Made by a program: the position numbers and the translations under genes. The notes beneath the pieces were generated by a model. That model was not told the origin of the DNA. It did not search any database and saw only the letters and a program-made list of their open reading frames with translations. Below, piece after piece: positions 17,728 to 37,633 of a stretch of DNA of 64,000 nt (position 1 is its first letter; the number at the start of each line of letters is the position of its first letter). The DNA is from Sphingopyxis sp. (GTDB taxonomy: Bacteria; Pseudomonadota; Alphaproteobacteria; Sphingomonadales; Sphingomonadaceae), in assembly GCF_016793825.1 (NCBI RefSeq), contig NZ_JAEULM010000016.1, positions 33,930-97,929 of the forward strand, in the 5' to 3' direction.

Positions 17728-19038
17728 TCACCCCACGGTCAGCGTATAGGTGACCCGATAATCGCTCGCGTCGCCGTTCAGCGTCCTGGTGAAGGTTCCC
17801 GGCACATTGCCGATATCGACCGTCCCGATATTGTCGCTGCCGCCGATATCGTCGAATTCGCGAAGCTGAAAGCTCACCGGCTGCTCAAAAGCGAAATTCC
17901 GGTCGACCACCCAGCTTTCTCCGCGTTTGATAGAGAAGATTTCGCGCGACCCCTCGGGGAAGCGTTCGCCGGTGTTGAAACGCAGGAATAGCTGGTCGGG
18001 AAGCCCCAGGCCGAGCCGGCCGGTCAGCTTCACCGCTTCGACATGGATGTTCGACAACATATATTTCTTTGCAGTCGGCGCAGCCGCGACCATCACTGGC
18101 TTGGCCGCCGGCGGCGCGGCCTTCGGGTTCTTGCCGAGCCGTGTGACGCTTTCGTTCGCCTGGGTGGCATATTTTCCGGCAGGGAATTCGGCGAGATAGG
18201 CCTTGAACGCGCTGGCGCTGTTTTCGGCGACCGCGCCTTTCCACATCAAATCTTCCAGCGCGGCGCGGTTGCCCGTTGCGGCCTGCCCGGCGCGCGGGAC
18301 CAGATAGACGGGGGTACCGGTGATGCTGGCGCTGACGAAGGGCCGTTGCAGCCCGCCCGTCGCCGCCAGCACGTCATCGCGAATGGCGCCGCCGAGGAGC
18401 TGGACCGGCAAGTCGGGCTGCGGCAGGCGCTTGGCGAGCGAGGTCGCGAAGGGCGAGTTCACACCGGTTCCATCGGCCGCGGTCTGTCCCGGCGCGGCCG
18501 CGAAGATTACCAGGACGTCGTCGGCCTCCACCCCCGCAAGCCCGTTCACGACGGCGCGGGTGCCCGATCGCCAGGATCGGCCAAAGGGATTGTTGCGGCA
18601 CGAATCGAGAATGACGACGCGGATCCGCGCGCCCGACACCGCCTCCATCATCCGGTCGAGATTGATCGCTTCATACGGCAGGTCGAGGTCGGATTTCAGT
18701 TGCGCGTCGGTCGGGATCAACCAGTTCTTCCCCTGCGCCTCGATCCCGTGGCCAGCGTAATAGACCATCGCGACTTCGGCGCCGTCGGCCTTGGCGCGAA
18801 AGTCGCGCATCGTCTTCTGGAAGTCGTTGACCGACAGGTTGGCTGCGATCGTAACATCGTCGAACCCCGCGCTGCGCGCCGATGCCGCGACGATCTTGAT
18901 ATCGTTGGCGGGGTTGGTGAGGCGGCTGGTGTTCGCATAATTGCTGTTGCCGACGATCAGCGCGACCTTGCGGGCCTCGGCGCTTGTCGGGACGAGCAGG
19001 AAGATGGCGGTGATCAGGGCGAGCCAGGTGCGCATCAT
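17728..19038 (-). CDS. Exported caspase-like (peptidase C14) protein with a C-terminal beta domain
   Basis: Signal peptide, KVALIVGNSNY, LTNPAND, dyad YYAGHG and ILDSCR, NSPFATSL, YLAEFPAG linker. Confidence 0.9.
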   Translation of the reverse strand: MMRTWLALITAIFLLVPTSAEARKVALIVGNSNYANTSRLTNPANDIKIVAASARSAGFDDVTIAANLSVNDFQKTMRDFRAKADGAEVAMVYYAGHGIEAQGKNWLIPTDAQLKSDLDLPYEAINLDRMMEAVSGARIRVVILDSCRNNPFGRSWRSGTRAVVNGLAGVEADDVLVIFAAAPGQTAADGTGVNSPFATSLAKRLPQPDLPVQLLGGAIRDDVLAATGGLQRPFVSASITGTPVYLVPRAGQAATGNRAALEDLMWKGAVAENSASAFKAYLAEFPAGKYATQANESVTRLGKNPKAAPPAAKPVMVAAAPTAKKYMLSNIHVEAVKLTGRLGLGLPDQLFLRFNTGERFPEGSREIFSIKRGESWVVDRNFAFEQPVSFQLREFDDIGGSDNIGTVDIGNVPGTFTRTLNGDASDYRVTYTLTVG

Positions 19039-20921: not shown

Positions 20922-21710
20922 TCAGCCCAATCTCTCCAATATCCGCGCCGCCAGCCATTCGGCGTCTCGCCCGGCAAAGCTGTGGGACGGGCTGTCGAGC
21001 CGCTCGACCGCGACAGGCGGCTGCTTGCAGCTTTCCACAAACGCCTGCGCGGTACGGTCGCCGGTCGCGAGCAGGATCGTCGCGGGACAGACGAGAGTCG
21101 CCATCGCGCGGTCGAGCCGGGCCGGCAAGCTGCCGGGTAAAGAGACAGGCTTAGCTTTGCCGAGCGCGGACAGGCCGCGCAGCAGTTTGCGGATATCGAT
21201 CTCGCCCCTGAGCAGGCGGAGCAGGCTTTTGGGGTCTTTCAGCCGCGAAAGATAGCGCGCGCGGATCGCCGCAGCGGGGGGCAGGACAGGTTCATCCGCT
21301 TCCGCCCCGCTCTCGTCATAGGTCCAGGGATTGGCGAGGAGCAGCGCATCGATCGGCAACGGCTGGTGCAGCAGCAGTGCGCTCGCCGCATCGCAATTGC
21401 CGAAGGCGACGATGCGCGTGACGTGCGGCGCGGCCGCGCGGAAGGCGGCGATGGCGGCTGCGACGTCGGGGCCGCTGTTCGCATAGCCGCCGTTCTCGCC
21501 GGTGCTGTCCCCGACCCCGCGCCGGTCGAACCGGAACACCGGATAGCCTTCGCCGGCGATCCGCTGTGCGAGCATAGCCATGCCGCGATGCGCGCCGCTG
21601 CGAACTTCGTTGCCGCCGGAGACGATCAGCAGGCCCGTCGCGCCCGGCGCCTCGTCGAGACTTGCGGCGAGCGTCGCGCCTTCGCACCCAAAGCTCAGCT
21701 GATGCCGCAT
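20922..21710 (-). CDS. Alpha/beta hydrolase 1, exosortase A system-associated
   Basis: VSGGNEVRSGAHRG, FRFDRRGVGDS, FGNCDAAS (Cys at the nucleophile elbow), LLANPW. Start MRHQLSF (21710). Confidence 0.85.
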   Translation of the reverse strand: MRHQLSFGCEGATLAASLDEAPGATGLLIVSGGNEVRSGAHRGMAMLAQRIAGEGYPVFRFDRRGVGDSTGENGGYANSGPDVAAAIAAFRAAAPHVTRIVAFGNCDAASALLLHQPLPIDALLLANPWTYDESGAEADEPVLPPAAAIRARYLSRLKDPKSLLRLLRGEIDIRKLLRGLSALGKAKPVSLPGSLPARLDRAMATLVCPATILLATGDRTAQAFVESCKQPPVAVERLDSPSHSFAGRDAEWLAARILERLG

Positions 21711-22375
21711 GTCTTGCTCCAGGCGGCGATGTCCGAGGCGATCGCGCCGGCCATGGCGGCGTCCTCGCCCGGCTCCGCGCGCAGCCACAGCGGGGTTCCC
21801 GCGATGCCGTCGGCCCCGAGGCCGACGCTGCGAAGCGGCGCGACCGGTTGCGGTTCGGCGCTGCCAAGCTGAGCGACCATTGCTGGCGACAGCGCATTGC
21901 CGGCCAGCAGCAACGTCGCGGTTTGCGCATCGGCTTGCAGGCTGTCCAGCGACGATTCGATACCGGCTTCGCGATCCGCCGTCACCCGCCCGCGCAGCAT
22001 CGTCCGGAGCAGCGGGGCGCCGCCGACAGGGGCGAGGCGCCACCATGCCGACGCCGCTGGCCGATGATCGATCAACGCACCTCCACGAACCGAGGCGACA
22101 AGGATCGGGCCGTCGATTCCGTCCGCATTCTTGGCGAGCGCATCCTGCCAGCGGTCGAGATCGACGAGGTCAAGCGGTACGAGGCTTTCATTCTGCCCCG
22201 GAAGATCGGGTAGCACCGCCGCAAACCCGTCCGCCGCCAGCTCCCGCATCGCCAGCACCAGCGTGCGGCGCAGCCGGTTCGCTTCATCGAACAGCGGCGG
22301 GACGATCAGGACGGTTGCGCGTGGCGCGCCTGCGGGGTCGATCCGCAATTGATGCTCGGTAGCATCCGCCGCCAT
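21695..22375 (-). CDS. Alpha/beta hydrolase 2, exosortase A system-associated
   Basis: PPLFDEANRLRR, PDLPGQNES, ASVRGGAL, PLWLRAEP. It overlaps hydrolase 1. Confidence 0.8.
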   Translation of the reverse strand: MAADATEHQLRIDPAGAPRATVLIVPPLFDEANRLRRTLVLAMRELAADGFAAVLPDLPGQNESLVPLDLVDLDRWQDALAKNADGIDGPILVASVRGGALIDHRPAASAWWRLAPVGGAPLLRTMLRGRVTADREAGIESSLDSLQADAQTATLLLAGNALSPAMVAQLGSAEPQPVAPLRSVGLGADGIAGTPLWLRAEPGEDAAMAGAIASDIAAWSKTCGIS

Positions 22376-22397
22376 GATAAGCAGCCCTCTCTTCTAT

Positions 22398-22474
22398 CGT
22401 CATCCCGGCGAAGGCCGGGATCTCGCCGTGGCTGGAAACTCCACGGCGAGATCCCGGCCTTCGCCGGGATGACG
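22398..22474. repeat. Perfect CGTC-REP dimer (REPIN), 34-bp stem
   Basis: 22398-22431 is the exact reverse complement of 22441-22474, with a 9-nt loop. Each arm starts with CGTC and contains its own ATCCCGGC/GCCGGGAT hairpin. Confidence 0.95.
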
Positions 22475-22497
22475 GGATAGAAGGGAAGCGATGGCCG

Positions 22498-22764
22498 TCA
22501 CCCCGCTACCTTGCGCTCGGAAAAGGCGAGAAGATTGCCATAGGTTTCAAATATTTCGCCATCGATCTCATCATCGTCGATGATGATGCCGAGGCGATCC
22601 TCTATTTCGGTCAGCACCGTCGCGACCGCCATCGAATCGAATTCGGGCAGGGCGCCGAACAGGCCGCTGTCGTCGGTCAGAGCAGCGGCGCGACGTTCGC
22701 CGAGGCCGAGGACGTCGGCGAGCAGTGCGCGAAGAATGGCATCGACGGTGGCGTTATCGGTCAT
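22498..22764 (-). CDS. Acyl carrier protein (exosortase A system-associated)
   Basis: Acidic 88-aa protein with the phosphopantetheine motif LPEFDSMAV and the segment IEDRLGIII. Start MTDNATV (22764). Confidence 0.92.
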   Translation of the reverse strand: MTDNATVDAILRALLADVLGLGERRAAALTDDSGLFGALPEFDSMAVATVLTEIEDRLGIIIDDDEIDGEIFETYGNLLAFSERKVAG

Positions 22765-23768
22765 ATGTCTTTCCTGAGCAGGGAACGCGCAAAGGCCTTG
22801 GATGCCGGTCCCCATGCCGCGAGCCGCGTCGGATTGAAAGCCTCGATCCGCCACAACGGTTCGTGCCGGTTCATCCAGTCCCGTTTATAAGCGTCGTTTC
22901 CTGTTCCGAAGTCGATGCGCTTCACACCATCGATCTCGATCGTGTGGCGAAACAGCGCGGCCGACAACAGGGTTCCGGGGGACGCCTTCAGGCTGTCTTC
23001 GACATGAGCGAGCTTGTGGATGAAAGCGGTGCCATCCTCGACGGTCCAGAATTGCGCGGCGACCGGGGCGCCGTCGATGCGGGCGAGACCCATGCGAAAG
23101 GTGCCGCGCGCGCTTTCGGCCTCCGCAAAGGCACGAAGCAGTGCCGGATGGCCTTCCTCGGGCTTCCAGCTCGCGGCATAGATTTGTTCGTAGGCGATCC
23201 AGCTTTCGGGATCGAAGCGGGTGAGCAGTGCGATATCGACGATGGCCTTCTTCGCCTTACGCTGGACGGTGCTGCGCAGCGCGCCCGGTCGGCTCGCCCA
23301 CCAGCTGTCATGGTCCATTCCGGACAGGTCGAGCCAATGGCGGTCGCCGGCGCGGGTTGCATCGATCCACCAGCCGGCCGCGCGCAGCCCGGCTACGATC
23401 GTTTGCCGCTCGTCGTCGCGCACCGGAAACAGCGACAGGCGCGCGCCTCGGCGGCGCAGCTTGCGGAACAGATCCGTCAGTGCCGCTTCGTGGTCGCGCG
23501 GGCCGGTGTACAGCGGCCGGATCGCAAAACTGTACCAGTTGGCAAGACCGGCAAGATGATCCGGCTTGTCGATGCGGAGCGCCAGCCATGCCGTCGCGGC
23601 GCCGGCGCTGCCGCGCGCATCGAACCGTCCTTCACCTGCAAATCCATGGGCGGTGAGCAGGTCGAACCATGCGGGCTGGTCAAAGGGCGTCGCAAAGCCT
23701 GCGGCTTTTGCCGCATCATCATTAGCGTGATCTTCACCGTTCCCTTGCATGGTCGCGCGCTCTATCAC
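22761..23768 (-). CDS. GNAT-fold acyltransferase (CelD/BcsL-like)
   Basis: PFDQPAWF, LANWYSF, RPGALRSTVQRK, SWKPEE, VAAQFW, SPGTLL, IDFGTGNDAYKRDW. Its stop overlaps the ACP start (ATGA). The start could be 23750. Confidence 0.85.
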   Translation of the reverse strand: MIERATMQGNGEDHANDDAAKAAGFATPFDQPAWFDLLTAHGFAGEGRFDARGSAGAATAWLALRIDKPDHLAGLANWYSFAIRPLYTGPRDHEAALTDLFRKLRRRGARLSLFPVRDDERQTIVAGLRAAGWWIDATRAGDRHWLDLSGMDHDSWWASRPGALRSTVQRKAKKAIVDIALLTRFDPESWIAYEQIYAASWKPEEGHPALLRAFAEAESARGTFRMGLARIDGAPVAAQFWTVEDGTAFIHKLAHVEDSLKASPGTLLSAALFRHTIEIDGVKRIDFGTGNDAYKRDWMNRHEPLWRIEAFNPTRLAAWGPASKAFARSLLRKDI

Positions 23769-23785
23769 GAAGCTCCTAACAGCCG

Positions 23786-25318
23786 ATGACCACTTTAGAA
23801 AATCCGCCGTCGCGTCCGATCGACCATCTCGTCCATTTTGGCGCGCCGGATGCGGCTGCGCTGCTCATCGGCGACGCCGTCACCACGTTCGCCGACCTCG
23901 ATGCGGGCGTCGGCCGGCTGGCGTCGTGGCTGCTCGATCAGGTTGGCGGTCCCGGCGAGCGCGTCGCAAGCTGGAGCGCAAAGACGCGCGCCGCCTGCCT
24001 GATGCCGCTTGCCGCCGCGCGCGCGGGTTTGATCCATGTTCCCGTCAACCCGCTGCTGAAGGGGCCGCAAGTTGCGCACATCCTGTCCGACAGCGGCGCG
24101 AAACTGCTCGTCACCAATGCTGCGCGCGCAGACATGCTCGGCGCGGAACGCCCCGAAGACTGCGCATATCAGGATCTGAAGATCGCCGAAGACGTCATCG
24201 ATTCGGGTGGACAGGCGCTGCCGCCTTCGACCGCCCGGCCGGACGACCTGGCCGCGATCCTCTACACCAGCGGTTCGACCGGCCGCCCCAAGGGGGTGAT
24301 GCTGAGCCATGCCAATCTGTGGCTCGGCGCCGAGAGCGTGGCGTCCTATCTGAACCTCGTGCCCGATGATCGCGTGCTTGCGGTCCTGCCCTTCAGCTTC
24401 GATTATGGACAGAGCCAGTTGCTTTCAAGCTGGTACGCGGGGGCGGCGGTCGCACCGCTCGATTATCTGACCCCGCGCGACGTTGTGAAGACGGCCGCGC
24501 GGCATCGCATCACGACCCTTGCCGGCGTGCCGCCGCTGTGGGTGCAACTCGTCGAGAGCGAATGGCCTGCCGATACTGCCGCGCTGCTGAGGCGGCTGAC
24601 GAACAGCGGCGGTGCGCTGACGCCCTCGCTCATCGACGCGATGCGTGCGACTTTCCCTCGCGCCGATATCTACCCGATGTATGGGCTGACGGAGGCGTTT
24701 CGGTCGACCTGGCTCGATCCGGCGCTCGTCGCCGACCATCCGACGTCGATGGGCCGCGCGATTCCACACGCCGAAATCCTCGTTTGCCGCGCCGACGGCA
24801 GCATCACGAACGACGACGAGGCGGGCGAACTGGTCCATGCGGGTCCGCTGGTTGCCAAGGGCTATTGGCGCGACGAGGAGCGGACGGCGCAGCGCTTCCG
24901 GCCGGCGCCTGCCGCATCGCGTTATGGGGGAACGGCGGTCTGGTCGGGCGATACCGTGCGCCGCGATGGCGATGGACTGCTCTATTTCGTGGGCCGCGAC
25001 GATGCGATGATCAAAACGGCGGGCAATCGCGTCAGCCCGACGGAGATCGAGGATGTCGCGGTCGCTTCGGGCCTCATTTACGAAGCGGTGGCATTCGGCG
25101 TTCCCGACCCGCGGCTGGGCGCCGCGATCGTGCTGATCGTACGCGGCAGAAACGGCCGTGACGATGCCGACGGGCTTGCCGCCTATCTGCGACAGAATCT
25201 GCCGAATTTCATGCAGCCGCAAGTGGTCGAATGGCGCGATGCGTTGCCGCGCAATCCCAACGGCAAGCTCGACCGTGTCGCGATCGCGGCCGAGTGGGCG
25301 CCGAAGGTGGCGGCATGA
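23786..25318 (+). CDS. AMP-forming acyl-CoA/ACP ligase, exosortase A system-associated
   Basis: Adenylation motifs YTSGSTGRPKG, YGLTEA, SGD, VGR.D.MIK, PRNPNGK. Confidence 0.93.
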   Translation: MTTLENPPSRPIDHLVHFGAPDAAALLIGDAVTTFADLDAGVGRLASWLLDQVGGPGERVASWSAKTRAACLMPLAAARAGLIHVPVNPLLKGPQVAHILSDSGAKLLVTNAARADMLGAERPEDCAYQDLKIAEDVIDSGGQALPPSTARPDDLAAILYTSGSTGRPKGVMLSHANLWLGAESVASYLNLVPDDRVLAVLPFSFDYGQSQLLSSWYAGAAVAPLDYLTPRDVVKTAARHRITTLAGVPPLWVQLVESEWPADTAALLRRLTNSGGALTPSLIDAMRATFPRADIYPMYGLTEAFRSTWLDPALVADHPTSMGRAIPHAEILVCRADGSITNDDEAGELVHAGPLVAKGYWRDEERTAQRFRPAPAASRYGGTAVWSGDTVRRDGDGLLYFVGRDDAMIKTAGNRVSPTEIEDVAVASGLIYEAVAFGVPDPRLGAAIVLIVRGRNGRDDADGLAAYLRQNLPNFMQPQVVEWRDALPRNPNGKLDRVAIAAEWAPKVAA

Positions 25319-26544
25319 AGCCGCACGGCCCGATACCATCCGGCTTTTCCGCCGATGCCGATGGCATGCTGCTGATCGGCGGCCGGCGGGCCGACGACCT
25401 TGCTAAGGCTGCGGGCGATACGCCGCTCTTCGTCTATGACGGCGCGATGCTGGCCGCGCGGGTTGCCGAATGGCGCCGGGCGATGCCTGCCGAGGTGCAA
25501 TTGCATTATGCGATGAAGGCCAACCCTTACGCCCCATTGCTGGGGCGAATGGCTGGCCTTGTCGATGGGTTCGATGTCGCATCGGGCGGGGAACTCGCCG
25601 CCGCACTCGCTAGCGGCATGTCCGCGGACCACATCAGTTTCGCCGGCCCCGGCAAGCGCGATCGCGAGCTGGAGGCCGCCATATCGGCGGGTGCGACGAT
25701 CAATCTGGAATCGGCGGGTGAGGCCGATCGGGCGCTTGCGATCGGCGCGCGGCTTGGCGTCGTGCCCCGGCTCGCGGTCCGGGTGAACCCCGATTTCGAC
25801 CTCAAGGGGTCGGGGATGAAGATGGGCGGCGGCGCAAAGCCGTTCGGCGTCGATGCCGTCGCGGTTCCCGCGCTGGTCGGGCGCCTGCTCGAAGCCGGCG
25901 CCGATTGGCGGGGTTTTCATATTTTTGCCGGATCGCAGGCCCTTGATGCAGGGGCCATCGCCGATACGCAGGCGCAAACGCTCGCGCTCGCGGCACGCCT
26001 TGCGGCGGAGATCGGCCGCACGCCACCTCTCGTCAACCTGGGCGGCGGAATGGGCGTGCCCTATTTCCCGGGCGATACCGCCGTCGATGCCGTCGCGGTC
26101 GGTCGGGCGCTCGGCGATGCTCTTGCGGCGCGCGATCGGCGTCTTGCCGACAGTCGCTTCGCGATGGAACTCGGGCGCTGGCTGGTCGCCGAGGCGGGCG
26201 TATATCTGACGCGCGTCGTCGACAGGAAAACCAGCCATGGCGAGACCTTTCTGGTGACCGATGGCGGCCTCCACCATCAGCTTGCCGCGAGCGGCAATTT
26301 CGGGACCGTCATTCGCCGCAACTATCCGATCGCGGTGGCGAACCGCTTTGGCGCCGAACCTTCCGAAACGGTGTCGGTTGTCGGCTGTCTTTGCACGCCG
26401 CTCGATCGGCTCGGCGATCAGGTCGCACTTCCATATGCCGATGTTCATGATCTTGTTGTGATTTTTCAGGCGGGCGCCTATGGCGCAACCGCGAGTCCGT
26501 CGGCCTTTCTGGGGCAGGGGCGAGCGCAAGAGATGCTGGTCTGA
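25315..26544 (+). CDS. PLP-dependent decarboxylase (fold type III, DAP-DC/BtrK-like), exosortase A system-associated
   Basis: YAMKAN (PLP Lys), FAGPGK, HIFAGSQ, NLGGG, ELGR.LV, CLCTPLD, GAYG. Start MKPHGP overlaps the ligase stop (ATGA). Confidence 0.92.
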   Translation: MKPHGPIPSGFSADADGMLLIGGRRADDLAKAAGDTPLFVYDGAMLAARVAEWRRAMPAEVQLHYAMKANPYAPLLGRMAGLVDGFDVASGGELAAALASGMSADHISFAGPGKRDRELEAAISAGATINLESAGEADRALAIGARLGVVPRLAVRVNPDFDLKGSGMKMGGGAKPFGVDAVAVPALVGRLLEAGADWRGFHIFAGSQALDAGAIADTQAQTLALAARLAAEIGRTPPLVNLGGGMGVPYFPGDTAVDAVAVGRALGDALAARDRRLADSRFAMELGRWLVAEAGVYLTRVVDRKTSHGETFLVTDGGLHHQLAASGNFGTVIRRNYPIAVANRFGAEPSETVSVVGCLCTPLDRLGDQVALPYADVHDLVVIFQAGAYGATASPSAFLGQGRAQEMLV

Positions 26545-26726: not shown

Positions 26727-27389
26727 ATGAAAACGTCCTTCCCCTCGCTTCGCGCTGCCAAGGCCGCACTGGTTTCGGGCATCGCCGCGACCGCGCTCAC
26801 GGGCTGCATCGGCACCAGCGGGGGCCCCGCGCCGCAGTTGCCGAGCGCGAACTTCGTCGCCAATCAGGAAGGACCGGGCGAAGAATATATCATCGGGCCG
26901 CTCGACGAACTCCAGATCTTCGTCTGGCGCAATCCGGAGCTTGGCGGCAAGGTGCAGGTGCGCCCCGACGGCCGCATCACGACGCCACTGATCACTGATA
27001 TGCCCGCCGTCGGCAAGACGCCCACGATGCTGCAACAGGACATCAAGCTGCAACTCAGCCAGTATATCACCGATCCGATCGTCAGCGTGATCGTTACCAG
27101 TTTCAACAGCACCTTCTCGCAGCAGGTGCGCGTTGTCGGCGCGACCGAAAAGCCGGCGTCGATCCCGTTCCGTGCCAACATGACGGTGCTGGATGCGATG
27201 ATCGCGGTCGGCGGCCTTGGCGAATATGCCGCAGGCAACAAGGCGCGGCTGGTACGATTCGACAAGGGTACGGGCAAGCAGGAGGAGTTTGGCCTGCGCC
27301 TCAATGACCTGATCAAGCGCGGCGACATCAAAGCGAATGTCCGGTTGCAGCCGGGCGACGTGATCATCATTCCCGAAAGCATGTTCTGA
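26727..27389 (+). CDS. Polysaccharide export lipoprotein (Wza/OPX), XrtA system
   Basis: Lipobox LTGC, YIIGPLDEL.IFVWRNPEL, VRPDGRITTPL, LQPGDVIIIPES. Confidence 0.93.
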   Translation: MKTSFPSLRAAKAALVSGIAATALTGCIGTSGGPAPQLPSANFVANQEGPGEEYIIGPLDELQIFVWRNPELGGKVQVRPDGRITTPLITDMPAVGKTPTMLQQDIKLQLSQYITDPIVSVIVTSFNSTFSQQVRVVGATEKPASIPFRANMTVLDAMIAVGGLGEYAAGNKARLVRFDKGTGKQEEFGLRLNDLIKRGDIKANVRLQPGDVIIIPESMF

Positions 27390-27450
27390 CCAAAACCGAC
27401 CGCTGAATCGCAGCTTTTGCCCCAGAGGCTTTGAGGACTGACCAGAGACG

Positions 27451-28983
27451 ATGAACGGCCTTTACGACGAATTCCGGGTGGCGCTGCACAGCGTCTGGAC
27501 ACGCCGTTGGCTCGTGCTCGCCGTGGCGTGGGCAATCTGCATCCTCGGCTGGCTCGCGGTCGCCTCGATTCCGAACCGCTATGACAGCCGCGCTCGCTTG
27601 CTGGTCGATATCAATCAGATTTTGCCCGACGACGCGGCGGGTGCCAGCGGGCAGCAGATCGACCAGATCCGCGAAACGCTGACCAGTGCGCGCAATCTGG
27701 AAAAAGTGGCGGCAACGACCGGCTTGATCGGTCCCGATGCGGGCGAACGCGACAAGGCGGGCGCCGTCGCGATGCTGCAAAACAACATCAAGGTCGTCCC
27801 GCAGCAACAGAATATCTTCGAAATCACGTCGTCCGTAGCGGTCGGCAGCCTGTCGGACGCCGACAATGCCAAGCTGGCATCGGGCGTGCTCGACAGCCTG
27901 ATCACCGTGTTTCGTGACGATCAACTCCGCGGTGGCCGCACGGACGCGCGCGAAGGGTTGAAGTTTCTCGACGCCCAGATCGCCGATCGCGAAACCGCGC
28001 TGCGCGAGATCGAGGCGCGGCGCGCGACCTTCGAGGCGCAGAATATTGGCTTGATCCCCGGCGGCTCGGGTTCGCCGGCGCAGCGCGTCGATGCGGCGCG
28101 CGCCGAACTCAGCCAGATCGATTCGCAGCTCATATCGGCGCAGGCCCAGCTTTCGGCTGCGAGCGGTCAGCTTGCTTCAACGCCTGCCACGGTAGCGGGC
28201 GGCAATGGCGGCGTCGGTGGCAGCGTTGCGCGCCAGCAGCTTGCCGGCGCACAGGGCGAATTGTCGGCGATGCATGCACGCGGCCTGACCGATGCGCATC
28301 CCGACGTGATCGCGCTCAAGAGCCAGATCGCTTCGTTGAAGGCGATCGCCGACCGCGAAGGCACCGGCGGCGGCGGTGGTGGGGTGCAGAACCCAGCGTA
28401 TGCCTCGCTGGCAGCGATGCGTGCCGAGCGTCAGGCGACGGTGAGCGCGTTGAATGCTCGCAAGGCGCAGCTCATGGGCGATATCGCCCGGATCACCTCG
28501 CAGCAGATCCAGAACCCCGGCATCGCGGCCGAATATGACCGCATCAACGGCGAATACACCGCGCTGAAGGCGCAATATGACAAGCTTCTCGGCCAGCGCG
28601 AACAAGTCCGGATGCGCGGGCAGGTGCAGACGGAAACCGATGCGATCAAGGTTGAACTGCTCGACCCGCCTTCGAAGCCGACAAGCCCTGCGGCGCCAAA
28701 CCGACCACTGTTTCTGACGCTCGTGCTCATTGCCGGGCTGGGCGGCGGCGTCGCCGCGGCGTTCGGCCTCAGCCAGGTACGCACGAGCTATGCGACCGCG
28801 GCGAAGCTCGAACGCGCGAGCGGACTGCCGGTGATTGGTTCGATTACCGAGGTGGTAACCCCCGAGCGCCATGTCGAACGCAAGAAAAGGCTGGTGTGGC
28901 TCGCCGGCGGAGCGGGGGCGCTCGTCGGCCTCTATGCGCTGCTGCTGATCGCCGAGTTCGTCCAGCGCGGCATGGTCGCGTGA
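27451..28983 (+). CDS. Polysaccharide chain-length determinant (Wzc/Wzz transmembrane part)
   Basis: Two TM segments flank a coiled coil. Motifs THPDVIAL and LDPPSKP...PNR. Confidence 0.9.
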   Translation: MNGLYDEFRVALHSVWTRRWLVLAVAWAICILGWLAVASIPNRYDSRARLLVDINQILPDDAAGASGQQIDQIRETLTSARNLEKVAATTGLIGPDAGERDKAGAVAMLQNNIKVVPQQQNIFEITSSVAVGSLSDADNAKLASGVLDSLITVFRDDQLRGGRTDAREGLKFLDAQIADRETALREIEARRATFEAQNIGLIPGGSGSPAQRVDAARAELSQIDSQLISAQAQLSAASGQLASTPATVAGGNGGVGGSVARQQLAGAQGELSAMHARGLTDAHPDVIALKSQIASLKAIADREGTGGGGGGVQNPAYASLAAMRAERQATVSALNARKAQLMGDIARITSQQIQNPGIAAEYDRINGEYTALKAQYDKLLGQREQVRMRGQVQTETDAIKVELLDPPSKPTSPAAPNRPLFLTLVLIAGLGGGVAAAFGLSQVRTSYATAAKLERASGLPVIGSITEVVTPERHVERKKRLVWLAGGAGALVGLYALLLIAEFVQRGMVA

Positions 28984-28997
28984 GCGGGGAAGAAGAC

Positions 28998-30029
28998 ATG
29001 AACGATCAACGCCCCGTCAAGCGCCCGCCTTCGCTGCTCGAACGCGCGGCCGACATGTTCGGTCTCGACCCCGCGAAGGACGCGGCGACCATCGACGTTT
29101 CGAAGCTGCCGCCGGAGCCCGAGAAAAGGGTTCGCAAGAGCAAGGCGCAGACCGAATCCGTCGTCGAGGTTCGGCAGGCCGAAGTCCTGCCGCCGATCGT
29201 CGAAACTGCGCCCGCGGTCGAAGCGGCGCCAGCGCCGACACCCTCGGCGCGCAAGGACGTCGCCAGGGCCGCCCCTGCCGTCGTTCCAACGCGGCAAGGA
29301 AGCATCGATCGCGCGCGTCTCGCCGCCAACAGCATGATCGTACCGGGCGCGCCTGTCACGGGCATTTCCGAAGAATATCGCATCGTGAAGCGCGAGATCA
29401 TCCGGAACTTTTCGGGCACCGCGAACCGGCCGGTCGTGCCGCGCGGACATCGCGTCCTGATCGCGTCCGCCAACCCCGGCGAAGGCAAGACCTTTTCCGC
29501 TGTCAACCTCGCACTCAGCCTCGCGGTCGAAGCCGACCACGATGTGCTGCTGATCGACGCCGATATCGCGAAGCCGAGCGTGCTCGATACGCTGGGCCTC
29601 GAAAACGGCCCGGGTCTGATGGATGCGCTGGCGGATCCGCACCTGCCGCTCGGCGATTGCCTGATCCAGACCGATATTCCGGGGCTGAAGGTCATGCCTG
29701 CGGGGACGCAGCGCCTGAACGATACCGAATTGCTCGCATCGGCGCGGACCGAGGCCTTGCTTGCCCAGCTTGAGGCGGGCGCGCCCGGGCGCATTCTGAT
29801 CCTCGATTCGCCTCCGGTTCTTGCGGCGTCGCCCGCTGCGGTGCTTGCGGGGCACGTCGGCCAGCTGATCATGGTCGTGCGCGCCGACCAGACGATGGAA
29901 AGCGCATTGCGCGATGCGATCGGACTGATGGGCGCGTGCCCGCATATCCAGCTTCTCCTCAACGGAGTGAAATTCTCGCCGGGCGGCCGCCGCTTCGGCA
30001 CCTATTATGGACAGGGAGGCGCGTCATGA
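28998..30029 (+). CDS. XrtA-associated tyrosine autokinase (CpsD/CapB)
   Basis: SEEYRIVK, Walker A SANPGEGKT, LLIDAD, ILDSPP, C-terminal TYYG. Start MNDQRP (28998). Confidence 0.9.
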   Translation: MNDQRPVKRPPSLLERAADMFGLDPAKDAATIDVSKLPPEPEKRVRKSKAQTESVVEVRQAEVLPPIVETAPAVEAAPAPTPSARKDVARAAPAVVPTRQGSIDRARLAANSMIVPGAPVTGISEEYRIVKREIIRNFSGTANRPVVPRGHRVLIASANPGEGKTFSAVNLALSLAVEADHDVLLIDADIAKPSVLDTLGLENGPGLMDALADPHLPLGDCLIQTDIPGLKVMPAGTQRLNDTELLASARTEALLAQLEAGAPGRILILDSPPVLAASPAAVLAGHVGQLIMVVRADQTMESALRDAIGLMGACPHIQLLLNGVKFSPGGRRFGTYYGQGGAS

Positions 30030-31741
30030 TGCGCACCAATGCCAGTATGCGCCGTGGGGCGGCGCTTGCGGCGCTGTTGCTCGCCGGAACCGCGACGAGC
30101 GCGCAGGCGCAGTTTTCGGGTGATCCGGGCGCGAGCGATGCGTCGCCCCGGGGAGCATCCGCTGCCGACGGTGCCGCGGACAAGAAGGGCAAGCGTGGCG
30201 AACGCCAGCGCAAGGAACGCCGCGTCGATGTCAGCCCCTATCTCGAAGTCGGGCAGGTGCTCAGCGCCGACCTCAAGAATGGCGGCGATGTTCTGACCTA
30301 TACGACCGCGGCGATCGGCGTCGACGTTGCGGTGGCGACGCGCCGGGCGGAGGTCGCGGCGGGTGTCCGGTACGAGCATCAGTTCGGCTGGGGCAAACAG
30401 AACGATCAGGATGTGATCAGCGGTATCGCGCGCGGGCGGGTCGATGTCGCGCAGGGGCTCAGTCTCGAAGGCGGCGCGCTTGCCACGCGCACGCGCGCCG
30501 ACGGTGGCGGCAGCGACAGCAGCCTGTTCGTCGGCAACCGGAACAATGTTGCGAACACCTATTCCTTTTATGCCGGCCCGACCTTCGCGCGCCGTATCGG
30601 CGGACTGGATGTCGGGGCGGGGTATCGCTTCGGCTACACCAAGGTCGACGTGGACGCGCCGACATTGCTGCCGTCCGGCGCGCTCGTGCAAAATGTCTTC
30701 GACAGCTCGACAAACCATGTCGCCTGGGCAAGCGTCGGCCAGCGGCCGGGTGATCTGCCGTTCGGCTGGCAGGTTTCCGGCGGCTATGAACGCGAGGACG
30801 CGAGCCAGCTGGACCAACGCTATGAAGGCAAATTCGCGCGCGCCGACGTGACCGTGCCGGTCGGCCCGACCTTGGCGCTGCTTGGCGGTGTCGGCTATGA
30901 GAATATCGAGATCGGCCAGCGCGATCCGGTGCTCGACGTCAACGGCGTGCCGGTCCGCGACGCCAGCGGTCGCTTCGTCACCGACACGTCGACGCCGCGC
31001 AAGCTTGCGTTCGATACCGACGGGTTGATCTGGGATGCGGGCGTCATGTGGCAGCCAAGCCGTCGCACGTCGCTTACTGCAAAGGTCGGCCGCCGTTATG
31101 GCGACATGATCTACACCGGCAGTTTCGTTTATCGCCCCGACCACGCGACGACGTTTCAGGTCGGCGTTTATGACGGGCTTTCCAGCTTCGGGCGCGGGCT
31201 GTCGACCGGGCTAGCGGCGCTTCCGACGCAGTTCGACCCCTTGCGCAACCCGATAACCGGCGATTTCAACAATTGCGTCTTCGGCGAACAGGGTGGGGGT
31301 TGCCTGGGCAATCAGCTCGGCACGCCGACCGCGGCGCAGTTCCGCAATAGCGGCGTCCAGGCCGTCATGAGTTCGCGCACCTATGGCTGGAGCTATGGCG
31401 TCGGCGTCGGCTATGATCGCCGCCGCCTGCTGGTGCCGCGTACGTCGCCGATCGCGTCGCTCAACGGCATCACGGACGAGAATTATTATCTGTTCCTGAC
31501 CGCTGGCCATCCGATCGACCGCGATTCCGACATTACCTTGTCGGGCTATCTCAATTATTTCGACAATGGTTCGCCGGGGGGCAGTGATGTCCAGTCCGCC
31601 GGTCTGACGGCATCCTATGGACGGCGTTTCTGGCGCGGCCTGACGGGAACGGCGGCCGCCAGCCTGACCGCTTTCGATCAGGACGGCTTCAACAGCCAGT
31701 TGATCGGATCCGCTCTGGTGGGCCTGCGTTACAATTTCTGA
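30026..31741 (+). CDS. Outer-membrane beta-barrel protein of the PEP-CTERM/XrtA locus
   Basis: Signal peptide, alternating beta-strand pattern, terminal LRYNF. The start overlaps the kinase stop (ATGA). Confidence 0.8.
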   Translation: MMRTNASMRRGAALAALLLAGTATSAQAQFSGDPGASDASPRGASAADGAADKKGKRGERQRKERRVDVSPYLEVGQVLSADLKNGGDVLTYTTAAIGVDVAVATRRAEVAAGVRYEHQFGWGKQNDQDVISGIARGRVDVAQGLSLEGGALATRTRADGGGSDSSLFVGNRNNVANTYSFYAGPTFARRIGGLDVGAGYRFGYTKVDVDAPTLLPSGALVQNVFDSSTNHVAWASVGQRPGDLPFGWQVSGGYEREDASQLDQRYEGKFARADVTVPVGPTLALLGGVGYENIEIGQRDPVLDVNGVPVRDASGRFVTDTSTPRKLAFDTDGLIWDAGVMWQPSRRTSLTAKVGRRYGDMIYTGSFVYRPDHATTFQVGVYDGLSSFGRGLSTGLAALPTQFDPLRNPITGDFNNCVFGEQGGGCLGNQLGTPTAAQFRNSGVQAVMSSRTYGWSYGVGVGYDRRRLLVPRTSPIASLNGITDENYYLFLTAGHPIDRDSDITLSGYLNYFDNGSPGGSDVQSAGLTASYGRRFWRGLTGTAAASLTAFDQDGFNSQLIGSALVGLRYNF

Positions 31742-31756
31742 TTCGGGGAACAGGCG

Positions 31757-32929
31757 ATGTACGATCAATATTATGGTTTCACCGGCCGTCCCTTCCAGCT
31801 GACGCCGGACCCCGCTTTCTATTTCGAGAGCGGCACGCACCGGAAGGCCATGTCCTACCTTGGCTACGGCCTCGCGCAGGGAGAGGGCTTCATCGTCATC
31901 ACCGGCGATGTCGGTGCGGGCAAGACGACCCTCGTCGGGCACCTCATGAACACGATCGACCCCAATCGGCTGACCGCGGTCAAGCTGGTGTCGACGCAGG
32001 TCGAGGGCGACGACCTTCTCCGCCTTGTCGCGGAGCAGTTCGGCCTTGAATGGGAAGGGCAAAGCAAGGCCGAATTGCTGCGTTCGATGGAGGAATATCT
32101 GCGCGACCAGGCGCGCGCCGGCCGCCGCACCCTTCTGATCGTCGACGAGGGACAAAATCTCGCCATCTCGGCGCTCGAAGAGCTGCGGATGCTGTCGAAC
32201 TTCCAGCTCGGCGGTCATTCGCTGCTGCAGATCTTCCTGCTGGGGCAGCCCGAATTCCGCCAGACGCTGTTCCACACGCCGACGCTCGAACAACTTCGCC
32301 AGCGTGTGATCGCGACGCACCACCTCGATCCGATGGAGCCCGAGGAAGTCGAACCCTATATCCTCCACCGCCTGAAGAAGGTTGGCTGGACCGGAAATCC
32401 CAGTTTCGCGCCCGAGGCGTACGAACTGATCTTCGATTATAGCGACGGCGTGCCGCGCAAGTTGAACGTGCTGGTCAGCCGTCTGCTGCTGTTCGGCGCG
32501 GTCGAGGAACTGCATCGCATCTCGGCGCAGCATGTCCGCAATGTCATCGCCGAGGTCGAAGCCGATCGCGGCGTCGACGAGGCGAGCCTCGCGCCGCTGC
32601 CGGTCGAGGAGGTCGTCGCGCATGCCGCGGCCGCTGTTGCGCCGGCCGAGGATCGCGCGCTCGATTGGCCTGCGGCGGCGCCGGACGGGCGAGCGCCGTT
32701 CGCTGCGCCGATCGAAGTCGGCGAGACAGCGGATAATTCTGCGCCCGTGGCGCCCGCCATCGACGAGGCACAGATCGCCGAGCTTCAGCGGCATATCGCG
32801 AGCCTCGAGGAACGGCTGGTCGAACAGGACGCGGCGCTGCGTCGCGTACTCGACCTGCTGATCGAATGGGTCGAACGTGATCCCGAGAACGCACCCAACC
32901 CGGCGAAATCCGAGGTCTGGGCCGCGTGA
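31757..32929 (+). CDS. ExeA-like AAA ATPase, XrtA/PEP-CTERM system-associated
   Basis: YGFTGRPFQLTPDP, GDVGAGKTT, IVDEGQN, LLGQPE, LRQRV, GVPRKLN. Confidence 0.92.
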   Translation: MYDQYYGFTGRPFQLTPDPAFYFESGTHRKAMSYLGYGLAQGEGFIVITGDVGAGKTTLVGHLMNTIDPNRLTAVKLVSTQVEGDDLLRLVAEQFGLEWEGQSKAELLRSMEEYLRDQARAGRRTLLIVDEGQNLAISALEELRMLSNFQLGGHSLLQIFLLGQPEFRQTLFHTPTLEQLRQRVIATHHLDPMEPEEVEPYILHRLKKVGWTGNPSFAPEAYELIFDYSDGVPRKLNVLVSRLLLFGAVEELHRISAQHVRNVIAEVEADRGVDEASLAPLPVEEVVAHAAAAVAPAEDRALDWPAAAPDGRAPFAAPIEVGETADNSAPVAPAIDEAQIAELQRHIASLEERLVEQDAALRRVLDLLIEWVERDPENAPNPAKSEVWAA

Positions 32930-32974
32930 CGCGCTGAGCATCATCCGCTACGAGGTTGATGAAGGTGAGGAAAA

Positions 32975-33835
32975 ATGCAGAACGGCCTGTCGGTCGATGT
33001 CGAGGACTGGTTTCAGGTCGGCGCATTTGAGCGCACGATCGACCGTGCCGACTGGCCGGCGCTGGAATGCCGCGTCGAGGCGAATGGCGATGCCGTGCTG
33101 CAAATATTCTCCGACGCGGGGGTTCGGGGCACGTTCTTCACGCTCGGCTGGGTTGCCGAACGCTATCCTGCATTGATCAAGCGCATTGTCGATGCGGGGC
33201 ACGAACTCGCGAGCCACGGCTATGACCACAAACGGGTGTTCCACATGACGGCCGACGAGTTCGCGGCGGACCTGAAGAAGACGCAGGCGATTCTCGAAGA
33301 TATCGGAGGCACCCCAATTCGCGGGTATCGCGCGCCCAGCTTTTCGGTCGACGCGCGCACACCGTGGGCTCACCCGGTTCTCGCCGAACAGGGCTATGCC
33401 TATTCGTCGAGCGTCGCGCCGGTGGTGCACGATCATTATGGCTGGTCGGAAAGTCCGCGCCATGTCTGGCAGCCGCTTGATGACAGCGCGCTCGTCGAAT
33501 GGCCGGTGGCGACCGCCCGGATCGCCGGGCGCACGCTCGCGGCGGGCGGCGGAGGGTTCATGCGGATGCTGCCATATGGCTTCACACGCTGGGCCGTCGC
33601 GCGAATGAATGCCGAAGGCCATCCGGCCATCCTCTATTTCCACCCGTGGGAGATCGATCCCGGGCAGCCGCGGGTCGCGAACGCGCCGATCAGGTCGAAA
33701 GTTCGTCATTACACCGGCTTGGCGGCCATGGCTGGCAAGCTGAAGAAGCTGCTTGCCGATTTCGAATGGACGCGGGCCGATGCTCTGCTTCCGGCCCAAC
33801 AGGAGCGCGCCCGGCCATGGCGCGCCGCTGCGTGA
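32975..33835 (+). CDS. Polysaccharide deacetylase, XrtA system
   Basis: SVDVEDWF, TFFTLG, HELASHG, GYRAPSFS, YFHPWEIDP. Confidence 0.93.
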   Translation: MQNGLSVDVEDWFQVGAFERTIDRADWPALECRVEANGDAVLQIFSDAGVRGTFFTLGWVAERYPALIKRIVDAGHELASHGYDHKRVFHMTADEFAADLKKTQAILEDIGGTPIRGYRAPSFSVDARTPWAHPVLAEQGYAYSSSVAPVVHDHYGWSESPRHVWQPLDDSALVEWPVATARIAGRTLAAGGGGFMRMLPYGFTRWAVARMNAEGHPAILYFHPWEIDPGQPRVANAPIRSKVRHYTGLAAMAGKLKKLLADFEWTRADALLPAQQERARPWRAAA

Positions 33836-34899
33836 ACGCACCCGTGCATCCGGTAATGGACGCGATCACGGTGTTGCCGCTGGACGACCCGGCGGCATGG
33901 GATGCCTATGTCGTCGCCCACCGGGACGCTACGCCGTTCCACAGCAGCGCCTGGTGCCGCGCGGTGACGAAAGCGACTGGCCATCGGTGCCATGCGCTGG
34001 CGGCGTATGATGCGAAAGGCGCGATGGCGGGTTTGTTGCCGCTCCACCACATCCGCTCGCCGCTGTTCGGGCAGGCGCTGGTTGCCACGGGCTTCGCCGT
34101 CGATGGGGGGATGCTCGTCGGCAGCAAGTCGGTTGCCGCCGCGCTTTCAGAAGCGGCGGCCGGGCTGGCCCGGACGCTCGGCATTTCATCGGTCGAGTTG
34201 CGCGGCGGTCCCCTGCCGGACGGCGAAGGCTGGCGCCGCGAAGACGGGACCTATGCGGGTTTCATCCGCGATCTTGCAACCGACGATGAGGCCGAACTGC
34301 TCGCCATTCCCCGCAAACAGCGGGCCGAAGTGCGCAAGGCGCTGGAAAGCGACCTGACCGTGACGACGGGGCACGGCGCGGCCGAGCGGCGCGATCATTA
34401 TCGCATCTATGCGACGAGCGTCCGCAACCTCGGCACGCCGGTCTTTCCGAAACGGCTCTTTGATGCGGTGCTCGATGCCTTCGGTGACGATGCCGATATC
34501 CTGACCATTCGCGAGAAGGGCCAGCCGGTCGCCAGTGTGCTGAGCCTGTACTGGCGTGGTGCGGTCATGCCCTATTGGGGCGGCGGCACGGCCGCCGCGC
34601 GCAAGTTGCGCGCCAACGAACTGATGTATTTCGCGCTGATGCGGCACGCTCGTGCAAAGCGATGCGCCCGGTTCGATTTCGGCCGGTCCAAGGTTGGAAC
34701 CGGCCCCTGGTCGTACAAGAAGAACTGGGGTTTCGAACCGCGCCCGCTCGTCTATTCGCGTTGGCTCGCGCCGGGTGAGGCGGCGCGCGACACGAATCCG
34801 AACAGCGCCAAATACCGGTTGCAGGTCGATCTTTGGAAAAAGCTGCCGCTCTGGGCGGCGAACCGCATCGGGCCGTTGATCGCGCGCGGACTGGGTTAG
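33832..34899 (+). CDS. FemAB-like (GNAT-fold) protein, XrtA system
   Basis: TPFHSSAW, RKQRAEVRK, VRNLGTPVF, YWGGG, FDFGRSK, YKKNWG. The GTG start overlaps the deacetylase stop. Confidence 0.9.
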   Translation: MNAPVHPVMDAITVLPLDDPAAWDAYVVAHRDATPFHSSAWCRAVTKATGHRCHALAAYDAKGAMAGLLPLHHIRSPLFGQALVATGFAVDGGMLVGSKSVAAALSEAAAGLARTLGISSVELRGGPLPDGEGWRREDGTYAGFIRDLATDDEAELLAIPRKQRAEVRKALESDLTVTTGHGAAERRDHYRIYATSVRNLGTPVFPKRLFDAVLDAFGDDADILTIREKGQPVASVLSLYWRGAVMPYWGGGTAAARKLRANELMYFALMRHARAKRCARFDFGRSKVGTGPWSYKKNWGFEPRPLVYSRWLAPGEAARDTNPNSAKYRLQVDLWKKLPLWAANRIGPLIARGLG

Positions 34900-34905
34900 C
34901 CGGAG

Positions 34906-37622: not shown

Positions 37623-37633
37623 GCGATACGGAC

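Follow-up and report, generated by a model that had tools for sequence, protein, structure and literature searches.

What do six genes do that lie directly against an exosortase A (XrtA) polysaccharide locus, and that belong to a gene set long catalogued as "function unknown"? The genes occupy positions 20922–26544 of the window, by which we mean the whole analysed stretch of 64,000 nucleotides from Sphingopyxis sp. A sequence-only reading had proposed a butirosin-like pathway, in which a ligase loads an acyl carrier protein (ACP), a decarboxylase acts on the carrier, and a GNAT or hydrolase-fold enzymes transfer the product to a surface glycan. With confidence slightly better than even, we favour a vicenistatin/butirosin-type carrier-protein pathway that decorates an XrtA-dependent exopolysaccharide with an aminoacyl unit. 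At the level of sequence, the loading and on-carrier decarboxylation half of the earlier interpretation was supported, whereas VinN is a closer ligase precedent than DltA and hydrolase 2 is probably not a hydrolase. The pathway would provide testable chemistry for the gene set; a full-text search found no paper on these exosortase-associated families.

The presence of all six genes was confirmed by ORF positions and family profile matches, and they form two divergent arms. On the minus strand lie hydrolase 1 (21710 to 20922, 262 aa; TIGR03100, 207 bits, cut-off 168), hydrolase 2 (22375 to 21695, 226 aa; TIGR03101, 34 bits, cut-off 203), a stand-alone ACP (22764 to 22498, 88 aa; PF00550, motif DSM) and a putative double-GNAT transferase of the FemX/MprF type (23768 to 22761; PF13480, 62 bits), which is 335 aa long from the GTG at 23768 or 329 aa if the start is the ATG at 23750. 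The plus strand carries a VinN-like AMP-forming ligase (23786–25318, 510 aa; TIGR03098, 645 bits, cut-off 592), labelled "acyl-CoA ligase" by NCBI, and a BtrK-like fold-III PLP decarboxylase (25315–26544, 409 aa; TIGR03099, 560 bits, cut-off 478). ATGA coupling, previously described for each arm, was found where the ACP start overlaps the GNAT stop and the decarboxylase start overlaps the ligase stop, but hydrolases 2 and 1 overlap by 16 nt (ATG...TGA). No obvious signal peptides were seen by eye in the six translations, suggesting that the proteins act in the cytoplasm, before export.

[quoted passage not shown] The ligase is VinN-like (C4 substrates) and the sole solved close relative of the decarboxylase acts on Glu; L-Asp is the most likely substrate, with L-Glu as the alternative. 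The PLP decarboxylase would then strip the free alpha-carboxyl on the carrier, as predicted from BtrK homology, giving beta-alanyl-S-ACP or 4-aminobutyryl-S-ACP. Hydrolase 1, probably complexed with the Arg-bearing, nucleophile-less hydrolase 2, might accept the acyl group as a thioester through its Cys-Asp-His residues and pass it to a polysaccharide precursor in the cytoplasm, at a hydroxyl or an amine. The double GNAT, found in roughly three in four Sphingomonadales loci, could aminoacylate the new free amine or itself carry the aminoacyl group to an amino sugar. The result would be an XrtA-dependent exopolysaccharide bearing an amine-terminated acyl decoration; transfer to exopolysaccharide or to PEP-CTERM glycans is a step that we infer solely from the gene neighbourhood.

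The chemistry of the first two steps has precedents. In Vin-type triads, a stand-alone ACP is charged by an AMP-binding enzyme with an acidic amino acid, attached by the side-chain carboxyl, before a PLP decarboxylase acts on the bound substrate; the VinN/VinL/VinO triad recurs as FlvN/L/O in fluvirucin and as BolO/BolC/BolN in bolagladin biosynthesis (PMC11284099, PMC7756342). Decarboxylation on the carrier is established both for VinN/VinL/VinO, where it follows side-chain loading (PMC11284099), and for BtrI/BtrK (PMC7857480). Unlike the Vin system, which belongs to an antibiotic cluster, the window module has no PKS, second adenylating enzyme (VinM) or VinK acyltransferase; downstream it has a FemX-type double GNAT, an alpha/beta enzyme with a Cys nucleophile and a pseudo-hydrolase that bears Arg, and it sits in an exosortase A polysaccharide locus. 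With the butirosin system of Bacillus circulans (BtrI/BtrJ/BtrK) it shares a small carrier protein and, as proposed here, attachment of the product to a sugar. However, BtrJ belongs to the ATP-grasp ligases and the window ligase is an AMP-forming ANL enzyme, no equivalents of BtrH, BtrG or BtrO/V were identified in the window module, and the amino acid loaded may be Asp instead of Glu.

As the sequence-only reading had noted, the module lies directly upstream of the polysaccharide export genes, the first of which starts at 26727. The adjoining locus (26727–39529, plus strand) is a complete XrtA/PEP-CTERM set, encoding an export protein, chain-length determinant, Tyr kinase, outer-membrane protein, ATPase, deacetylase, FemAB and glycosyltransferase as well as XrtA-EpsI and an AsnB-like amidotransferase. 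Its NCBIfam matches (TIGR03027, 03007, 03018, 03016, 03015, 03006, 03019, 03087, 03109+02914 and 03108) were above cut-off except for TIGR03018 (200.8 against 230.65) and TIGR03016 (25.5 against 90.85). XrtA itself is 10 kb from the module. The expected co-occurrence with exosortase A was borne out among 301 Pseudomonadota genomes, where XrtA was present in 13 of the 15 that carry the decarboxylase as compared to 4 of the 286 others (Fisher p about 1e-17). The gene order was identical in 21 of 80 Sphingomonadales loci and partially kept in most others. Since the order recurs and the decarboxylase tracks XrtA, the arrangement is not due to chance, and the locus is an ordinary, typical member of a widespread uncharacterised gene set. 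In the "Exosortase A system-associated" TIGRFAMs/NCBIfam set (TIGR03098–TIGR03101), the families are named but their chemistry is unassigned. The window ligase, decarboxylase and hydrolase 1 exceed the curated cut-offs, whereas hydrolase 2, a short and divergent form, misses its own, and the ACP and GNAT have no curated model.

The strong association with XrtA could also mean that, with unchanged core chemistry, the acceptor is a protein, the unit or a FemX-built dipeptide being placed on PEP-CTERM proteins or their glycans, or providing the amine onto which XrtA would join PEP-CTERM proteins after cleavage. The genome encodes 17 PEP-CTERM tails and the locus three FemX-type double GNATs, and FemXAB makes the amine acceptor for sortase A. 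We nevertheless regard a protein acceptor as unlikely, given that the six proteins appear to work in the cytoplasm before export and that no PEP-CTERM gene lies within the locus.

A separate small molecule or lipid, such as an N-acyl-beta-alanine-type aminolipid or a siderophore-like compound of the bolagladin kind, might instead be made by genes that share only location and regulation with the XrtA locus. Secondary metabolites are the products of all the characterised relatives (Btr, Vin, Flv and Bol; PMC11284099, PMC7756342). In some genomes the cassette is found tens of kb away from XrtA or on a different contig, and sister-clade ligase-decarboxylase pairs are also found without XrtA. Yet genes of the PKS, NRPS, condensation or KAS III type are absent from the locus in the window, and in 80 Sphingomonadales loci the cassette sits directly against the export genes, with a distribution that tracks XrtA; an unconnected product thus seems quite improbable.

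For decoration of the exopolysaccharide, the candidate transfer enzymes are the two hydrolase-fold proteins and the GNAT. Hydrolase 1 has an alpha/beta-hydrolase fold with a Cys106-Asp218-His243 triad and a G-N-C-D-A elbow. The Cys nucleophile that had been read from the sequence is real, being conserved in 40 of 41 Sphingomonadales relatives and in five of five distant ones, and the Asp and His are invariant among the relatives. We propose that hydrolase 1 is a thioester-forming transacylase. Its AlphaFold model (pLDDT 90.6) was closest to cinnamoyl esterases and monoglyceride lipases; as these are plain esterases and lipases, a proofreading or deprotecting role would be equally compatible with the fold. 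Hydrolase 2, a short and divergent alpha/beta-fold protein, has no catalytic His, and its nucleophile position is taken by an Arg that does not vary across the elbow-motif variants listed for 52 aligned homologues. Without a nucleophile or a His, it is probably not a hydrolase but a non-catalytic partner of hydrolase 1. Binding between the two is suggested by gene coupling and by one natural hyd2-hyd1 fusion in a single genome (L018:4605-6446). Hydrolase 2 is usually 215–230 aa long in Sphingomonadales and 281–302 aa elsewhere.

The structure model of the GNAT (pLDDT 92.2) is of the FemX/MprF double-GNAT type, its top folds being the MprF synthase domain, Weissella FemX and Sba18/Sbb17 (E about 1e-13; TM 0.54–0.64 on the query and up to 0.70 on the shorter Sba18/Sbb17 chains), although sequence identity to FemX, MprF and Sba18 is only 11–18%. 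Solved relatives of this type use aminoacyl-tRNA, and Sba18 was solved in complex with streptothrisamine, according to the PDB entry title. For the window GNAT the donor may be aminoacyl-tRNA or aminoacyl-ACP. The GNAT was found in 38 of the 50 Sphingomonadales loci that span the arm; its absence from the other 12 indicates that it is not essential to the core.

This bears on the further possibility that hydrolase 1, together with hydrolase 2, edits or deprotects, either clearing wrongly charged ACP in the manner of a type II thioesterase or, like VinJ, taking off an aminoacyl group that serves as protection, leaving the double GNAT as sole transferase. The hydrolytic nature of the nearest folds and the Pfam match to Hydrolase_4, the S33 aminopeptidase family, speak for such a role, and VinJ is an alpha/beta-type amidohydrolase of the Vin pathway (PMC11284099). 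We give it little credence, since the conserved nucleophile is Cys and not Ser, which speaks for transfer by way of a thioester intermediate, and since hydrolases 1 and 2 are curated constant members of a set from which the GNAT is missing in a quarter of related loci.

The loading half of the favoured carrier-protein pathway starts from the ACP, whose phosphopantetheine site lies in EFDSMAV. Its best solved relative was 2lki (62.6 bits), the Ser is kept in six distant orthologues, and the gene adjoins the ligase-decarboxylase pair in six of eight distant loci. For the ligase, the pocket profile of the family was matched best, among single domains, by VinN (3wv4/3wvn; 114 bits, compared with 67 bits or less for the other single domains shown), with 33% pairwise identity over 190 aa of the pocket region. 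D206, S274 and R306 align with VinN Asp230, Ser299 and Arg331, supporting retention of the residues that hold the alpha-amino-acid head group and, at the sequence level only, the earlier proposal that the ACP is charged with an amino or dicarboxylic acid. The pocket Asp and Arg, as well as FD and YGLTEAFRS, are invariant in an 11-sequence family alignment that includes four sister-group ligases and leaves out the most divergent relative (L026), which differs at FD/YGLTEAFRS. Judged by sequence, VinN is the closest ligase precedent, rather than BtrJ or the previously suggested DltA (162 bits for VinN, 119 for DltA). DltA/DltC D-alanylation of teichoic acids shares a ligase, a small carrier protein and, as proposed for the window, delivery of an amino acid to an envelope polymer, but has no decarboxylase; no DltB or DltD families were among the family matches returned for the neighbouring genes.

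BtrK, an L-glutamyl-[BtrI ACP] decarboxylase, was the closest solved relative of the window decarboxylase (230 bits, E 3e-67, about 38% identity), ahead of SbnH (126 bits), whose substrate is also a conjugated amino acid, and of the true DAP decarboxylases (LysA; 121 bits or less). The decarboxylase and BtrK have in common GPGK, KMGG and a 4-residue insert not found in LysA, and carry DGG[LM]HH, PLCTPxD and SPxxFL where LysA has DAxMNDLxRP, CETGD and YNxR. In the tree, XrtA-type, sister, BtrK and SbnH sequences cluster together (94/99) and two LysA sequences stand apart as a clade (97/97). At the sequence level these matches support the butirosin analogy for this step, and the decarboxylase is predicted to act on a carrier-tethered amino acid.

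Free-metabolite chemistry, with an acyl-CoA ligase for a fatty or organic acid, a DAP/ornithine-type decarboxylase that provides lysine or a diamine, and an ACP for some unrelated acylation, would fit the NCBI ligase name, the CoA-ligase-like A5 motif (YGLTE), the similar full-length scores of the ligase against acyl-CoA synthetases and adenylation domains, and the 222.6 bits of the decarboxylase on the LysA model, but is very doubtful given the amino-acid-binding residues of the ligase, its ATGA coupling to the decarboxylase in most relatives with the ACP nearly always alongside, and the evidence against a LysA-type DAP decarboxylase (score below the cut-off of 297.9, LysA motifs missing, and a separate bona fide LysA encoded on contig C32).

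The ACP and hydrolase 2 genes, which overlap by 4 nt in most relatives, are separated in the window by 122 nt containing a REP-like perfect hairpin (22398–22474, no strand; 34-nt arms, 9-nt loop), the first 24 nt of which occur in 22 copies in the genome.

The six genes described by the sequence-only reading at 20922-26544 were verified by ORF listing and profile searches. Four of them lie on the minus strand and are transcribed in the order GNAT, ACP, hydrolase 2 and hydrolase 1. These encode a PF13480 protein of the GNAT type (22761-23768, with a GTG start at 23768 and an alternative ATG at 23750), an ACP of 88 aa (22498-22764, PF00550, with EFDSMAV), the so-called hydrolase 2 (21695-22375, 34 bits on TIGR03101 with a cut-off of 203) and hydrolase 1 (20922-21710, 207 bits on TIGR03100 with a cut-off of 168). 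The plus strand encodes an AMP-forming ligase (23786-25318, 645 bits on TIGR03098 with a cut-off of 592) and a fold-III PLP decarboxylase (25315-26544, 560 bits on TIGR03099 with a cut-off of 478). The ligase, the neighbouring decarboxylase and hydrolase 1 thus score above the cut-offs of the curated set of proteins associated with the exosortase A (XrtA) system, whereas hydrolase 2 scores below its own.

The expected ATGA coupling in each arm was found for the GNAT and ACP genes and for the ligase and decarboxylase genes, but not for the remaining two junctions of the minus arm, since the two hydrolase genes share 16 nt and the ACP and hydrolase 2 genes are separated by a gap of 122 nt. This gap holds a perfect inverted repeat (22398-22474) with 34-nt arms and a 9-nt loop, the first 24 nt of which occur in 22 copies in the genome. 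The hairpin is a REP-like element, and because the ACP and hydrolase 2 genes overlap by 4 nt in most relatives, it is an insertion into a translationally coupled operon. The divergent starts of the GNAT gene (GTG at 23768 or ATG at 23750) and the ligase gene (ATG at 23786) are 17-35 bp apart, and an AGGAG sequence is located 4 nt upstream of the GTG. No sigma-70 promoter was found in a scan of this divergent gap, and each arm must have its promoter within the coding region of the other.

The profile searches also identified a complete XrtA/PEP-CTERM locus 3' of the module, and the genome encodes 17 PEP-CTERM tails. The locus encodes an export protein, a chain-length determinant, a tyrosine kinase, an outer-membrane protein, an ATPase, a deacetylase, a FemAB protein, a glycosyltransferase, XrtA-EpsI (300 bits on the XrtA model at about 36171-37622) and an AsnB-like amidotransferase, and has trxB and infA at its two borders. 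The gene for the amidotransferase (37634-39529) is situated 11 kb from the decarboxylase gene; in two distant genomes, its counterpart lies directly 3' of the decarboxylase gene on the same strand (L012:10649-12487 and L013:6020-7855). This placement hints that the amidotransferase works together with the cassette.

Over its whole length, the ligase obtained similar scores against adenylation domains and acyl-CoA ligases. Its domains are of the PF00501/PF13193 AMP-binding type, whereas BtrJ, the ligase of the butirosin pathway, is an ATP-grasp enzyme. The best single-domain match to the substrate-pocket profile of the ligase family was VinN of the vicenistatin pathway (3wv4/3wvn, 114 bits), while no single domain of the other chains listed exceeded 67 bits. 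LgrA, the apparent top match over the whole length, was rejected as the closest relative, as its 256 bits combine two domains with 116 and 138 bits. The pairwise alignment of the ligase with VinN covers 190 residues at 33% identity and contains one gap. According to the profile and pairwise alignments, D206 (in SFDYG), S274 (in TNSGG) and R306 (in TEAFR) of the ligase fall on residues 246, 315 and 347 of the VinN chain, which correspond to Asp230, Ser299 and Arg331 because of a constant tag offset of 16. The roles of these three residues in binding the substrate head group were taken from PMC7756342.

The Asp and the Arg, the latter within a YGLTEAFRS block, are invariant across the profile alignment of 11 family sequences, and the Ser position is occupied by Ser or Thr in 12 of the 14 aligned ligases. 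In L026, the locus of the most divergent relative, the block reads YGLTECHRC. Judged from these sequence comparisons, the ligase is VinN-like, and since its head-group residues are placed as in VinN and BolO, Asp is slightly favoured as the substrate. A search for glutamate mutase, considered as a source of 3-methylaspartate, gave no match in the genome, and the control genomes likewise gave no response. L026 contains three ligase genes in a row and has the ligase that is most similar to VinN (41%).

The best match of the decarboxylase among all PDB sequences was BtrK (230 bits, E 3e-67), which is deposited as L-glutamyl-[BtrI acyl-carrier protein] decarboxylase. It was followed by SbnH with 126 bits and by genuine DAP decarboxylases with at most 121 bits, and the identity between BtrK and members of the decarboxylase family is 35-40%. 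We considered whether the protein might instead be LysA, but the TIGR01048 model of LysA gave 222.6 bits, which is below the cut-off of 297.9, and the genome encodes a separate LysA on another contig (C32:5739-6890). The alignment further revealed several motifs that BtrK shares with the family and that set both apart from LysA, namely GPGK (GVGK in LysA), KMGG, DGG[LM]HH (DAxMNDLxRP in LysA), PLCTPxD (CETGD in LysA) and SPxxFL (YNxR in LysA), as well as a four-residue insert that LysA lacks. In the maximum-likelihood tree, the two LysA sequences formed a clade of their own (support 97/97), and the XrtA-type, sister-group, BtrK and SbnH sequences clustered together (94/99). The LysA reading was therefore rejected on the score, the motifs, the tree and the separate LysA gene, and by its sequence the decarboxylase is to be classified as BtrK-like. 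BtrK, SbnH and their relatives are decarboxylases of conjugated amino acids without a role in polyamine synthesis (PMC7857480).

The two hydrolase-like proteins differ in their nucleophile elbows. In hydrolase 1 the elbow is G-x-C-D-x-A, so that Cys replaces the Ser of the canonical Ser-His-Asp alpha/beta hydrolases while the Asp and His are kept. The Cys is conserved in 40 of 41 Sphingomonadales sequences and in all five distant relatives (5/5), and Asp218 and His243 are invariant. In one Sphingomonas relative (L106:6794-7537), the Cys is replaced by Gly (G-N-G-D-G). The predicted structure (pLDDT 90.6) shows a lidded alpha/beta-hydrolase fold of the ordinary kind, with cinnamoyl esterases and monoglyceride lipases as its nearest folds. 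The fold comparison gave no specific functional match, and the sequence search against PDB returned nothing useful. In hydrolase 2, the nucleophile position is occupied by Arg in all elbow variants listed for 52 aligned homologues (S-V-R-G-G in the window, G-L-R-x-G elsewhere) and there is no conserved His. Based on its position and on the shared x-R-x-G elbow and PPxFxExN motifs, we regard hydrolase 2 as orthologous despite the low score. The protein is short, but it is not a decayed pseudogene, as proteins of 215-230 aa that retain the conserved motifs are the norm in Sphingomonadales.

A single ORF of 613 aa in a gammaproteobacterial-type locus (L018:4605-6446) represents a natural fusion of hydrolase 2 and hydrolase 1, in which the N-terminal half is hydrolase 2-like with a G-C-R-F-G elbow and the C-terminal half is hydrolase 1-like with G-L-C-D-G. 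We infer that hydrolase 1 is a catalytic Cys enzyme and hydrolase 2 its non-catalytic partner. A PhaC-like polyamide polymerase was considered for the Cys enzyme and set aside, the Cys being the single feature in its favour.

The predicted structure of the GNAT protein (pLDDT 92.2) is a double GNAT, a fold that it would share with the FemX/MprF aminoacyl transferases. Its 27 best fold matches were all aminoacyl-tRNA-dependent transferases of this group, namely the MprF synthase domain, FemX/FemA and Sba18/Sbb17. The latter two, peptide synthases that depend on aminoacyl-tRNA, were solved as complexes with streptothrisamine (for Sba18 according to the title of the PDB entry). The sequence search of the GNAT protein against PDB returned nothing useful, and the homologue search recovered close Sphingopyxis relatives only. 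The gene is present in 38 of 50 related loci, and it is therefore an accessory rather than a core member of the module. The locus encodes two further, very divergent PF13480 proteins, and a recent duplication of the three is ruled out by pairwise E-values of about 0.006. At the far end of the XrtA locus (39714-41773), one of these, a BspF-like double GNAT with 136 bits, is coupled to a protein of the cupin/JmjC type. The cupin/JmjC gene (40709-41773) is a possible hydroxylase candidate, and the two could act as a hydroxylase-transferase pair on the same product.

The decarboxylase profile was used to collect 80 loci from Sphingomonadales. The commonest gene order, hyd1<hyd2<ACP<GNAT<|ligase>decarboxylase>export>..., was found in its exact form in 21 of these, and most of the others were truncated versions. 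Another eight loci were collected outside Sphingomonadales, seven of them from other classes of Pseudomonadota and one alphaproteobacterial. The gene order is rearranged among these eight, one of which (L013) is an exact copy of the layout in the window. The ligase gene adjoins the decarboxylase gene in seven of the eight, with no ligase found near the decarboxylase in L017, and the genes for ACP, hydrolase 2 and hydrolase 1 are usually located beside the pair. In one sample of 301 Pseudomonadota genomes, the decarboxylase scored above the cut-off in 15 and XrtA in 17, and both did so in 13 (Fisher's p about 1e-17). The gene arrangement is more than a product of chance. Sister decarboxylases with 373-456 bits, under the TIGR03099 cut-off, were identified in loci L019-L026. 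A related ligase that has retained the FD and YGLTEAFRS motifs often still accompanies them, and in some of the genomes no XrtA scores above the cut-off.

With exosortase A in its locus and PEP-CTERM proteins in its genome, the module is a typical member of a widespread set that is catalogued but unstudied; a full-text search of the literature found no study of these families. The most fitting description is that of a polysaccharide-locus variant of the vicenistatin and butirosin pathways of on-carrier decarboxylation. In the former, VinN attaches methylaspartate through its beta-carboxyl group to VinL, a stand-alone ACP, on which VinO subsequently decarboxylates it (PMC11284099). As in the vicenistatin, fluvirucin and bolagladin pathways, the window encodes a stand-alone ACP and a PLP decarboxylase with the ligase, which has counterparts of Asp230, Ser299 and Arg331. 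However, VinM (a second adenylating enzyme), the acyltransferase VinK and a PKS/NRPS acceptor were not found among the genes at positions 14.8-43.6 kb of the window. With the butirosin pathway the module shares a BtrK-type decarboxylase.

By homology to these systems, the ligase would attach the side chain of Asp (or Glu) to the ACP, and decarboxylation of this predicted, ACP-tethered substrate on the carrier would yield a beta-alanyl or 4-aminobutyryl thioester. The proposal of the sequence-only reading that loading and decarboxylation take place on the ACP is thus largely borne out at the sequence level, by the VinN pocket residues in the ligase and the BtrK motifs and tree position of the decarboxylase. 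The genomic context suggests that the Cys enzyme and/or the double GNAT may then pass the unit to a precursor of the XrtA-dependent polysaccharide in the cytoplasm.

Many environmental and floc-forming bacteria possess the exosortase A/PEP-CTERM system; to our knowledge, its accessory enzymes and the fate of the sorted proteins are not understood. We know of on-carrier decarboxylation only from antibiotic and siderophore pathways, and the pathway proposed here would extend it to surface-polymer tailoring. A chemistry backed by precedent for the ligase, ACP and decarboxylase core makes four "hypothetical equivalog" families experimentally approachable, and the Cys alpha/beta enzyme with its pseudo-hydrolase partner may represent a new type of transferase. 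A far more speculative idea, to which we give little credence, is that the module provides the exosortase system with its missing amine acceptor. A unit of the beta-alanyl or GABA type, to which the FemX-like enzyme might add further residues, would be grafted onto the exopolysaccharide repeat unit, and its free terminal amine would be the nucleophile that receives the cleaved PEP-CTERM proteins from XrtA. Sortase A uses the Fem-built cross-bridge, and if the idea were true, the unit would be its Gram-negative counterpart, and the Cys alpha/beta enzyme and the Arg-bearing pseudo-hydrolase would constitute a new type of ACP-to-glycan transacylase.

A caspase-like protein with an EACC1-associated type domain (56 bits) is encoded just outside the locus (17728-19038) and appears to be unconnected with the module. 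Elsewhere in the genome, a second and more distant exosortase-like gene (C12:4743-5516, 137 bits on the XrtA model) shares its contig with several PEP-CTERM genes.
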